14,071 bases of DNA from a virus. Lineage: Duplodnaviria; Heunggongvirae; Uroviricota; Caudoviricetes. Positions within the stretch are counted from its first letter, which is position 1. Every line of letters begins with the position of its first letter. Positions 10,735 to 11,878 of this stretch are shown piece after piece. The notes under the pieces were generated by a model, which searched no databases, was not told the DNA's origin, and saw only the letters and a list, made by a program, of their open reading frames with translations. Where the stretch lies: the IMG/VR virus record IMGVR_UViG_2711768037_000016, positions 1-14,071 of that record, one strand, 5' to 3'. A program made the position numbers and the translations under genes.

Positions 10735-10842
10735 ATGAAAAACAACCGTGAATTAAGCAGAGTAAAACTGCTTTTAATCCTTGCCACAGTACTGACAATA
10801 ACAGAAATCATTATTCTCTTTATTGCGCTGTCTGTCAGTTAA
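10735..10842 (+). CDS. Possible 35-aa single-TM peptide (speculative)
   Basis: ATG at 10735. Translation is MKNNRELSRVKLLLILATVLTITEIIILFIALSVS, a charged N-terminus followed by a hydrophobic helix. No convincing SD, and the AT-rich context inflates chance hydrophobic ORFs. Confidence 0.25.
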   Translation: MKNNRELSRVKLLLILATVLTITEIIILFIALSVS

Positions 10843-10865
10843 AAATATCGGGATACCACATACCA

Positions 10866-11054
10866 ATGAGACTGTATTTCACAATAGTAATTTTACTGGC
10901 AATTATCGCATGCATTTACGGATTACTCGTTCCGTTCCTTATATCCATGAAGGATACGATAGCAGTTACTTCTGGCTTTGCACTGGCGTTTCTGACCCCG
11001 CCCTGCATTTATGCCATTTACAAGGGTCTTTCTTTCACTAAGGATAAAAAATGA
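10866..11054 (+). CDS. Small membrane protein (62 aa, two predicted TM helices), translationally coupled to the SPFH lipoprotein
   Basis: MRLYFTIVILLAIIACIYGLLVPFLISMKDTIAVTSGFALAFLTPPCIYAIY. Its stop overlaps the next gene's start (ATGA at 11051-11054). Confidence 0.55.
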   Translation: MRLYFTIVILLAIIACIYGLLVPFLISMKDTIAVTSGFALAFLTPPCIYAIYKGLSFTKDKK

Positions 11055-11878
11055 AAAAAATTATTTTTGCTTTAGCCATTGTTCTGCCGACCATTGGCCT
11101 TGTCGGCTGCGATCGCGTTGAACCCGGTAATGTTGGCATCAAAGTAAATAAACTGGGCGACGATAAAGGCGTCGGTGAGGTGGTCGGTGTTGGTCGCTAC
11201 TGGACTGGCTGGAATACTGAAGTTTACATCTTCCCAACCTTCAAACAAATGAAGACCTACGATGAGCCGTTCAGCTTCCAGATGAGTGACGGCACAACCA
11301 TCGGCTATCACATCGGTGTTGCCTACAAAGTTGATCCATCCAAAGTTACCACGGTGTTTCAGACCTACCGCAAAGGCGTGGATGACATTACCGCCACTGA
11401 CCTGCGCCAGAAGATCGCCGACGCACTCAATCGACTGGCCAGCAAAATGACCACCGACAAATTTATCGACGGCGGCAAGTCTGAACTACTGGATGCCGCA
11501 CTTAAAGACATTCAGGAAGAGATGACCCCCATCGGCGTTCAGGTAATGAGCCTCTCTTATGTAGGTAAACCGGAATACCCGCCAACCGTTATCGACAGCA
11601 TTAACGCCAAAGTCACGGCAAACCAGAAAACCCTGCAGCGCGAACAGGAAGTCAAGCAACGTGAAGCGGAGGCCAACATGCTGCGTGCAGAAGCTGCCGG
11701 ACAGGCTGATGCCATTCGAACAAAAGCCCTAGCAGAAGCCGATGCCATTCGTTTACGCGGCGAAGCTCTGCGCCAGAACCCTGGCGTCATGGAGCTGGAA
11801 GCCATCAACAAGTGGAACGGTACACTGCCGCAATACATGACCAGTGGTGCCAATACACCATTTATCCAGATTAAATAA
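11051..11878 (+). CDS. SPFH/band-7 (stomatin/prohibitin/HflKC-like) domain lipoprotein
   Basis: Signal peptide with lipobox LVGC (MKKIIFALAIVLPTIGLVGC). SPFH-like core followed by an Ala/Glu/Arg-rich coiled-coil tail (AEANMLRAEAAGQADAIRTKALAEADAIRLRGEALRQ). SD AAGGA lies 7 nt upstream. Confidence 0.85.
   Translation: MKKIIFALAIVLPTIGLVGCDRVEPGNVGIKVNKLGDDKGVGEVVGVGRYWTGWNTEVYIFPTFKQMKTYDEPFSFQMSDGTTIGYHIGVAYKVDPSKVTTVFQTYRKGVDDITATDLRQKIADALNRLASKMTTDKFIDGGKSELLDAALKDIQEEMTPIGVQVMSLSYVGKPEYPPTVIDSINAKVTANQKTLQREQEVKQREAEANMLRAEAAGQADAIRTKALAEADAIRLRGEALRQNPGVMELEAINKWNGTLPQYMTSGANTPFIQIK

Follow-up and report, generated by a model that had tools for sequence, protein, structure and literature searches.

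A phage-borne SPFH lipoprotein gene coupled to a conserved two-helix membrane protein gene in an Stx2a prophage of Escherichia coli

Introduction

Why does a Shiga toxin (Stx) prophage carry a gene for an SPFH lipoprotein, and does the small membrane protein encoded directly in front of it belong to the same device? Cages built from SPFH proteins (HflK/C, prohibitin, stomatin, flotillin, and erlin) are structurally understood, and their roles in bacteria are still debated. The question arose from a stretch of 14,071 nucleotides (nt) of viral DNA (IMG/VR record IMGVR_UViG_2711768037_000016, called here the window), in which an initial annotation had described a prophage-borne SPFH lipoprotein coupled to small membrane proteins. 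The region was 100% identical to a stretch of the Escherichia coli chromosome, an Stx2a prophage of the phiP27 type adjoining mlrA, and the gene lies, as that annotation had supposed, in an accessory stretch of the prophage, which is variable. It has the orientation of the cI-like gene and stands between this gene, which is upstream, and xis and int, which are downstream. Our results showed that the lipoprotein gene is translationally coupled to the gene of a protein with two transmembrane (TM) segments, and that the same two genes are neighbors in many phages and bacteria. We tentatively propose that the pair encodes an SPFH scaffold of two subunits, seated on the inner membrane and facing the periplasm, which phages would use early to keep the membrane organized. 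The pair consists of the following features.

10866 to 11054, + strand: gene of the 62-residue two-TM hairpin partner (open reading frame (ORF), PHROG 1130, alignment A4, co-occurrence, and fusions)
11040 to 11054, + strand: translational-coupling junction (AAGGA Shine-Dalgarno sequence at 11040-11044, ATGA overlap at 11051-11054)
11051 to 11878, + strand: gene of the 275-residue SPFH/Band-7 lipoprotein (Pfam Band_7, PHROG 200, AlphaFold, and Foldseek)

Sequence and predicted structure of the SPFH lipoprotein

The N-terminus of the 275-residue protein reads MKKIIFALAIVLPTIGLVGC, followed directly by DRVEPG. A basic n-region leads into a hydrophobic core and then into the lipobox L-V-G-C, which had been noticed in the initial annotation. 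This signal (MKK, a hydrophobic stretch, LVGC) agrees with the lipobox pattern [LVI][ASTVI][GAS]C. Cys20 was invariant in two diverse alignments (A1 and A2), the fused members described below included, and both C20 and D21 were conserved at 90% or more in an alignment of close, enterobacterial relatives (A3). In Enterobacterales, Asp at position +2 is the inner-membrane retention signal of lipoproteins, and the protein is predicted to be lipidated at Cys20 and retained at the inner membrane through Asp21. Four parts of the protein were distinguished.

11051 to 11110, + strand: lipoprotein signal peptide, residues 1-20, ending in LVGC (from the sequence; the next codon, 11111-11113, encodes the +2 Asp)
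11114 to 11674, + strand: SPFH alpha/beta domain, residues 22-208 (Pfam envelope; strands and helices of the model)
11582 to 11776, + strand: long single helix, residues 178-242 (DSSP assignment of the model; full-length alignment of the protein with prohibitin, HflK/C, and erlin chains)
11777 to 11875, + strand: C-terminal tail, residues 243-275, with the motif I-x-K-W-x-G-x-x-P (alignments; predicted local distance difference test (pLDDT) below 50 for 245-275)

The SPFH-like body suggested earlier was recovered by both profile and structure comparison. Pfam Band_7 (PF01145) matched residues 22-208 with E=1.2e-30 and 107.3 bits against a cut-off of 23.6, covering profile positions 2-176 of 176, and the PHROG 200 family, labeled "lipoprotein", matched with E=1e-112. 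The AlphaFold model (pLDDT 76.7) contained the SPFH alpha/beta domain, one long helix at residues 178-242, and a low-confidence tail. The coiled-coil tail of the initial annotation was thus found as a long helix, which in the model is a single predicted one; judged from the model, it corresponds to the wall that coiled coils form in SPFH cages. Beyond the helix, W255 was invariant in A1, and I252, K254, W255, G257, and P260 were invariant in A2, and this tail may be a cap-forming segment.

The top Foldseek matches in the PDB were full-length prohibitin (8rrh), HflK/C (7vhq), and erlin (9vvg), with E values of 6.6e-13 to 2.9e-12 over 250-300 columns, followed at lower rank by stomatin, flotillin, vault protein, and QmcA. 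Prohibitin, HflK/C, and erlin carry their SPFH domain on the non-cytoplasmic side of the membrane, which agrees with the lipoprotein signal of the 275-residue protein. The historical label "serine protease" was rejected, since the Pfam scan contained no protease domain.

The two-helix partner and its coupling to the SPFH gene

The 62-residue protein has two hydrophobic segments and is basic at both ends, so that cytoplasmic termini are predicted by the positive-inside rule. It was matched by PHROG 1130 ("membrane protein", E=7e-23) and by no family in Pfam, NCBIfam, or PADLOC. Diverse partners (n=22) were 48-90 residues long, most of this length being taken up by the two TM helices. In their alignment (A4), the mean column identity was 28%, with P23 and S27 invariant and G37 nearly so. 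The motif P-x-L-[IVF]-S-x-x-[SD], to which the conserved residues belong, marks the turn that connects the helices and is predicted to be periplasmic. Partners of a subtype of their own, MIKGYLMAVSAV...LVPSLISAKSD..., were observed in Yersinia pestis NCTC5923 (locus L013) and in Kluyvera and Buttiauxella (L010-L012), and several flanking gene families were common to these four pair loci.

The ATG of the SPFH gene (11051-11053) overlaps the TGA of the 62-residue ORF (11052-11054), and the AAGGA lies six bases upstream of this ATG. The ATGA at 11051-11054 pointed out in the initial annotation was therefore confirmed as a site of translational coupling. An IS1 element was observed exactly between the partner and SPFH genes in L006 (3212-3980) and L007, from Shigella flexneri CP182556 and E. 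coli CP178302. Its left inverted repeat (IRL), GGTAATGACTCCAACTTATTGAT, begins at 3212 in L006, and the complement of the right one (IRR) lies just 5' of the SPFH Shine-Dalgarno sequence; the insertion alters the last residues of the partner and breaks the coupling.

Several identities were considered for the partner and set aside. NfeD was rejected because PF01957 was not among the families listed for the 22 diverse partners at E<=10 and because the protein is too short for an OB-fold; the doubt already expressed about a canonical NfeD was well placed. The same scans gave scattered sub-threshold hydrophobic matches only, among which those to SPP1 and HP1 holins (E 0.05-0.2) were regarded as hydrophobic noise. 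Homology to YjeT (DUF2065), a 65-residue membrane protein whose gene directly follows hflC in E. coli K-12, was rejected on an hhalign probability of 0.3% over 9 columns. The partner profile, when searched against the PDB, found nothing meaningful and no relative of solved structure.

Conservation of the pairing

Conservation of the pair was examined by searching the partner profile hidden Markov model (HMM) in all six-frame, stop-to-stop frames of retrieved loci. The narrower SPFH alignments A2 and A5 were used for locus retrieval, the broad alignment A1 being too diverse. Among close IMG/VR relatives, which are near-identical and serve as the basis of overlap statistics rather than of diversity, the partner was matched in 80/80, on the same strand, upstream, and once per locus, with the 4-nt overlap in 78. 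Diverse IMG/VR contigs, 40-48% identical to the seed, contained it in 78/80, again upstream on the same strand and within 400 nt in 75; there was a single partner match per locus among the 8031 frames searched. The taxa sampled by the 80 genome loci included Enterobacterales, Xenorhabdus, Morganella, Sutterella, Dyella, Leptospira, Bacteroidota, Dependentiae, and Iamiaceae. The HMM matched 56 of them at E<1e-3, always directly upstream on the same strand, and inspection of those with no match revealed 7 more two-TM ORFs with the same motif, which brings the number to about 63/80.

In individual phages, a two-TM ORF of 60-80 residues overlaps or abuts the SPFH start in phiP27, P2-like P88, P1-like RCS47, HK97-like Fraca, and N4-like KpCHEMY26. 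The rV5-like phage 4MG has the pair with an extra ORF for a 54-residue soluble protein between the hairpin and SPFH genes (L090 2832-2996, phage 4MG_115). By these sequence comparisons, the pairing of the SPFH lipoprotein with the two-TM partner is real and old, and the coupling to a 62-residue two-TM protein seen in the initial annotation extends far beyond the window.

Natural fusions provided a second line of evidence. An exhaustive search of 50%-identity representatives gave 206 SPFH clusters at E<1e-30. Among the best 150 of the 206 representatives, most were lipoproteins of 270-300 residues and about twenty had 330-390 residues. The hairpin was fused in frame at the N-terminus in at least 14 of these 150 (partner HMM E 2.6e-11 to ~1e-2), and in one metagenomic protein, P0170 (344 residues), it was fused at the C-terminus, at residues 290-333 (E=8e-8). 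In the genome loci L049, L055, and L064, too, an N-terminal two-TM extension and the SPFH body share one continuous open frame; the partner profile matched the extension in the first two, and that of L064 was recognized by eye only. Such in-frame fusions are "Rosetta-stone" evidence that both products work together. The order in the fusions examined was hairpin, basic linker, hydrophobic segment, lipobox Cys, and SPFH domain, which indicates the topology: the hairpin runs in-out-in, and the SPFH domain follows outside. The retained internal lipobox suggests that LspA may cleave a fused precursor, with the same two parts as products. In addition, the PHROG 200 profile has 379 positions, of which the protein of the window aligns to 81-359 only; the first ~80 positions may represent hairpin-fused members, so that fusions may also exist in phages, and among the 160 viral loci examined no hairpin-SPFH fusion was found.

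These results bear on the simplest alternative, that the two genes are mere neighbors, the small ORF being either a membrane moron without relation to the SPFH gene or no gene. The small protein has no Pfam family, its ORF is often unannotated (for example in RCS47 and phiP27), and some SPFH-lipoprotein clades do not have it. This reading is scarcely credible, however, as it is already contradicted by the co-occurrence and the fusions: the same-strand adjacency holds across phyla and phage families with one match per locus, the in-frame fusions occur at either end of the SPFH protein, and residues of the partner stay invariant despite its low mean column identity.

Distribution in phages and bacteria

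Homologues of the SPFH gene were widespread. A DNA match was present in 549 of 5426 complete E. coli genomes, about a tenth, on chromosomes as well as plasmids, and tblastn at E<=1e-10 found a homologue in at least 389 phage records. The latter included temperate phages and, in addition, N4-like, rV5-like, LUZ24-like, FelixO1-like, phiCbK-like, crAss-like, Lak, and jumbo phages, with virulent lineages among them. In bacteria, the pair adjoins sdhCAB in five species of Leptospira, and in Dyella, where its flanks are conserved, it adjoins genes for a hemerythrin and a BlaR1-type peptidase. This distribution over phage and non-phage settings points to an old bacterial device that was taken up repeatedly by phages.

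In the phages examined, the setting of the module is an early or a middle region: P88 has it between cox and gene A, the N4-like phage beside RNA-polymerase and nucleotide-metabolism genes, and 4MG beside ligase and exonuclease genes. P1-like phages have it inside the C1-controlled ban operon, where it replaces the tciABC genes of P1. The P1 slot, between upl and the tRNA and ban genes (L086 14234-14930), was seen to hold tciA-tciB-tciC, which are TerB-like and annotated as [quoted passage not shown]. The two-TM/SPFH pair occupies the same slot in RCS47 (L004 4731-5775), where the small ORF is unannotated, and in other P1 variants.

Comparison with known SPFH systems

Structurally, HflK/HflC with FtsH of E. 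coli (7vhp, 7vhq, 7wi3, and 9cz2) is among the closest systems. It combines an SPFH domain with a long helix on the periplasmic side, forms a cage around a membrane patch, ranks among the best structural matches, and provides the only direct sequence matches in the PDB. The protein of the window differs from it in several respects. It scored 15-23 bits with the HflK/HflC models (TIGR01933, TIGR01932, NF008181, and NF008259) against equivalog cut-offs of 134-660, it is encoded by a single SPFH gene with no second SPFH ORF in the window, and in place of an N-terminal TM helix it has a cleavable lipoprotein signal and a predicted lipid anchor, with a separate two-TM partner.

In the main proposal of the initial annotation, the module would mimic HflK/C and cage or modulate FtsH; it would thereby determine how stable regulators of the CII/CIII type are and, with them, the choice between lysis and lysogeny. 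The nearest structures, HflK/C with FtsH and prohibitin, share the non-cytoplasmic orientation, and the weak direct sequence matches are HflK and HflC. The cIII gene of lambda is carried in the same kind of operon as the SPFH pair here. An Hfl link of a phage SPFH lipoprotein has also been speculated for Burkholderia phage CSP3 (PMC10269572). Nevertheless, we consider this proposal improbable. With 20-23 bits against 134-159, the scores fall well short of the HflK and HflC equivalog cut-offs, a single SPFH gene stands in place of a K/C pair, and a lipid anchor replaces the N-terminal TM helix. Moreover, strictly virulent phages, for which there is no lysogeny decision to make, commonly carry the module, and it is found in bacteria in chromosomal settings far from phage, which argues against a lysogeny-specific role. 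A possible action on FtsH without the link to lysogeny is folded into the scaffold explanation discussed below.

SPFH-NfeD operons, such as QmcA-YbbJ of E. coli (8z5g) and PH1511-PH1510 of Pyrococcus, resemble the locus in having a co-oriented, adjacent membrane-protein gene, a likeness that is an analogy of layout and not homology. NfeD-type genes are co-transcribed with SPFH genes and usually lie upstream of them, and their product is believed to reside with the cage or within it (PMC2636767). Unlike these products, the partner has no OB-fold or NfeD domain and could not hold one. QmcA, the 41st structural match, faces the cytoplasm, whereas the 275-residue protein is predicted to be periplasmic. 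According to Hinderhofer et al., NfeD partners occur only in the SPFH1, SPFH2, and SPFH5 subfamilies, and SPFH4, the prokaryotic prohibitin-like group, is without an NfeD partner and predicted to have a periplasmic orientation (PMC2636767). Prohibitin (PHB1/2) is the top structural match (8rrh) and shares the non-cytoplasmic orientation and a similar C-terminal motif past the helix, but it is a PHB1/PHB2 heteromer with an N-terminal TM anchor, and the sequence identity is only 15-17%.

The gene at 11051-11878 is a typical member of the annotated phage SPFH genes (PHROG 200; "putative serine protease"; "SPFH domain-containing protein"). Annotated homologues occur in phiP27, P88, RCS47, Fraca, and many other phages, and their annotations give the domain only. 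The literature searched contained annotation-level mentions and speculation only, with no description of the pairing, as the initial annotation had suspected. Nor was a description found there of the two-helix partner, its motif, the lipobox-retaining fusions, or the spread through virulent phages and chromosomes.

Proposed function of the module

The scaffold proposed above, which we put forward as a tentative explanation, would be assembled as follows. The 275-residue product would be exported, lipidated at Cys20, and held on the outer face of the inner membrane by the Asp at +2, so that the SPFH domain, the 65-residue helix, and the C-terminal tail would be periplasmic, a placement comparable to that in HflK/C, prohibitin, and erlin. 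The lipoprotein would also oligomerize as these proteins do, and the resulting ring or cage would close off a membrane patch. The 62-residue hairpin would provide the membrane-spanning part that the lipoprotein does not have, and its periplasmic turn (P-x-L-I-S-x-x-S/D) would contact the membrane-proximal face of the SPFH ring. The module would then be an old bacterial membrane-homeostasis device captured many times by phages, and it would probably serve to maintain an organized and functional inner membrane in cells that are infected or induced. Entry into the enclosed patch might be controlled, with an FtsH-type protease as the leading candidate client.

Such a module would define a compact two-gene, periplasm-facing version of the SPFH system with its own conserved partner, and its carriage by phages would offer a clean genetic handle on the role of SPFH scaffolds under acute membrane stress. 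The lipobox-retaining fusions raise a testable question of lipoprotein processing, and for Stx phages the module is a further unexplained accessory function in pathogenic E. coli.

Several observations weigh against this explanation. The AlphaFold model is that of a monomer, with oligomers and the contact to the partner outside its reach. LUZ24-like and FelixO1-like phages, as well as clades of Cytophagales and Kapaibacterium, have the SPFH lipoprotein without this partner, which is thus not obligatory for the fold. The two parts have also diverged out of step. Between P88 and the window, the mature SPFH protein was 96% identical, the signal peptide 43%, and the partner 22%; the corresponding values for RCS47 were 93%, 35%, and 26%. 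The megablast matches to P88 and the P1 variants covered window positions 11099-11844 only, leaving the signal peptide and the last eleven codons outside, and the GC content, 33-41% across the partner, stepped up near 11000-11100 to 50-57% across the SPFH body. The identity contrast and the GC step suggest that the partner and the signal peptide travel, or diverge, as a unit apart from the body. This pattern is compatible with an interface that is loose or confined to the motif, or with a partner whose main work is done with something else. In addition, the module may be expressed in the lysogen from its own promoter; a consensus scan of the + strand of the AT-rich gap at 10682-10865 found none, which is a weak negative. 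Finally, a prophage-encoded HflK/C-like protein of Pasteurella multocida was found in outer-membrane vesicles (PMC9872710), and if it is of this family, it would not fit inner-membrane retention.

The same divergence is relevant to a different function, superinfection exclusion or membrane-level defense, in which the scaffold and the hairpin would block incoming phage DNA at the inner membrane, or trigger or blunt membrane-based abortive infection, so that a lysogen or an already infected cell would be protected. The partner and the signal peptide change far faster than the SPFH body, as interfaces in conflicts often do, the pair takes the slot of tciABC in P1-like phages, and a predicted periplasm-exposed inner-membrane lipoprotein encoded in early or accessory regions would suit such a task. 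A virulent phage may also have an early exclusion protein, as shown by the early-expressed Llp of T5 (PMC9586334). We nevertheless regard this function as unlikely. A PADLOC-DB 2.0 search at E<=0.1 gave no match for six proteins (the SPFH protein, the partner, the product of a 35-codon ORF described below, and three neighbors), the Pfam, PHROG, and NCBIfam scans gave no similarity to known exclusion proteins, and the conserved chromosomal housekeeping neighborhoods in Leptospira and Dyella favor a cellular rather than a conflict function. A broader form of the idea appears somewhat less likely again: a widespread "split SPFH" cage, periplasmic and with its TM wall built from the two-helix subunit, that phages of many families would use early to close off part of the inner membrane, as a new class of phage-borne membrane counter-defense or exclusion device. 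If this were true, the entry of rival phage DNA would be blocked or membrane-targeting abortive-infection effectors would be neutralized, and the cutting of fused precursors by LspA would yield the two parts of the same cage.

The P. multocida protein, PM0222 (OAZ06802.1), also forms the precedent for a role toward the animal host. It is described as a prophage-encoded HflK/C-like protein of 25-35 kDa that activates TLR1/2, and its deletion makes P. multocida less virulent in mice (PMC9872710). By analogy, the lipoprotein could be a lysogenic-conversion factor released in vesicles, acting as a TLR1/2 agonist or fitness factor, and the window comes from a Shiga toxin prophage of pathogenic E. 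coli. However, PM0222 is only a candidate member of this family, TLR1/2 is stimulated by any triacylated lipoprotein, and the Asp at +2 predicts inner-membrane retention. Furthermore, the occurrence of the module in environmental bacteria and virulent phages would be left unexplained, and we hold a host-directed role to be very improbable.

Variation upstream of SPFH genes without the partner

Where the hairpin partner was missing, other small genes were observed upstream of the SPFH gene. Pseudomonas phage TL (gp11, L088 2722-2940) and Erwinia phage phiEa104 (L091 2765-2986) have unrelated small genes directly upstream, and of the two small proteins from these LUZ24-like and FelixO1-like phages, one carries a C-terminal TM tail on a soluble body, and the second is an all-helical soluble protein. 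The most distant SPFH lipoproteins (31-33% identity, 300-318 residues) also occur without the hairpin. In six loci from Cytophagales, Cyclobacteriaceae, and Bacteroidia metagenome-assembled genomes (L072, L073, L075, L078, L081, and L084), a different ORF of 45-128 residues lies ~100-400 nt 5' of the SPFH match. It has an N-terminal hydrophobic segment and an acidic, D/E-rich stretch, and it ends in "...LRI" in 5/6 loci. This Cytophagales-type ORF may be an alternative partner.

As regards the mosaic structure of the window itself, recombination-like boundaries were visible just past the signal peptide (11099) and eleven codons before the stop (11844).

The 35-codon ORF upstream of the pair

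A possible single-TM peptide of 35 residues had been proposed in the initial annotation as a further small membrane protein of the locus.

10735 to 10842, + strand: 35-codon ORF of the initial annotation (codon comparison; no Shine-Dalgarno sequence)

The ORF itself exists, but its status as a gene did not hold. Compared with phiP27, it showed 7 non-synonymous and 2 synonymous codon changes, with differences distributed 5/2/2 over the codon positions, whereas the SPFH gene showed 6 non-synonymous and 48 synonymous changes, distributed 3/4/49. It is not preceded by a Shine-Dalgarno sequence, had no PHROG or Pfam match, and was not found upstream of the partner in the other carriers examined. 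Because of the codon changes, which give no sign of coding selection, the missing Shine-Dalgarno sequence, and the absence elsewhere, it was rejected as a third component of the module; 10735-10842 is most probably not a gene.

Operon setting and neighboring genes

The order of genes on the + strand is a cI-like repressor (7988-8677), a DicA-like double helix-turn-helix (HTH) protein, several small genes, the pair, DUF5406, xis, and int, with the cro-like and replication genes on the opposite strand. This layout is that of a lambdoid leftward early operon. Two features stand at its head.

8742 to 8770, + strand: promoter-like site TTGACA-17-TAATAT (consensus scan; just 3' of the cI-like gene)
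8789 to 9517, + strand: gene of the double DicA/XRE-type HTH protein (directly 3' of the cI-like gene and the promoter-like site)

The site at 8742-8770 is a candidate early promoter of the pL type, and transcription of the module could start there. In the interval up to the module, consensus scanning found one further promoter-like site on the + strand (9577-9604, 9/12 matches), and a scan for + strand terminator-like sites found none. Judging from its position and these consensus signals, the module in this prophage is probably transcribed with the early leftward operon. The double-HTH protein is an unusual second regulator heading that operon; in lambda, the matching position is occupied by N. 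A related Stx1a phage without the module has only hypothetical genes in the slot, and the location gave no functional clue.

Downstream of the pair, a GC-rich hairpin, CCCGGC-AAACC-GCCGGG, was observed at window positions 11887-11903, 9 nt past the SPFH stop and followed by only two T's. It was not called a terminator by the scan and could be an RNA-stabilizing or attenuating element before the DUF5406 gene. A truncated DUF4222 pseudogene (RefSeq) lies at ~12322-12426 on the + strand between DUF5406 and xis, and an intact DUF4222 gene is present on the other arm of the prophage (L001 10011-10190).

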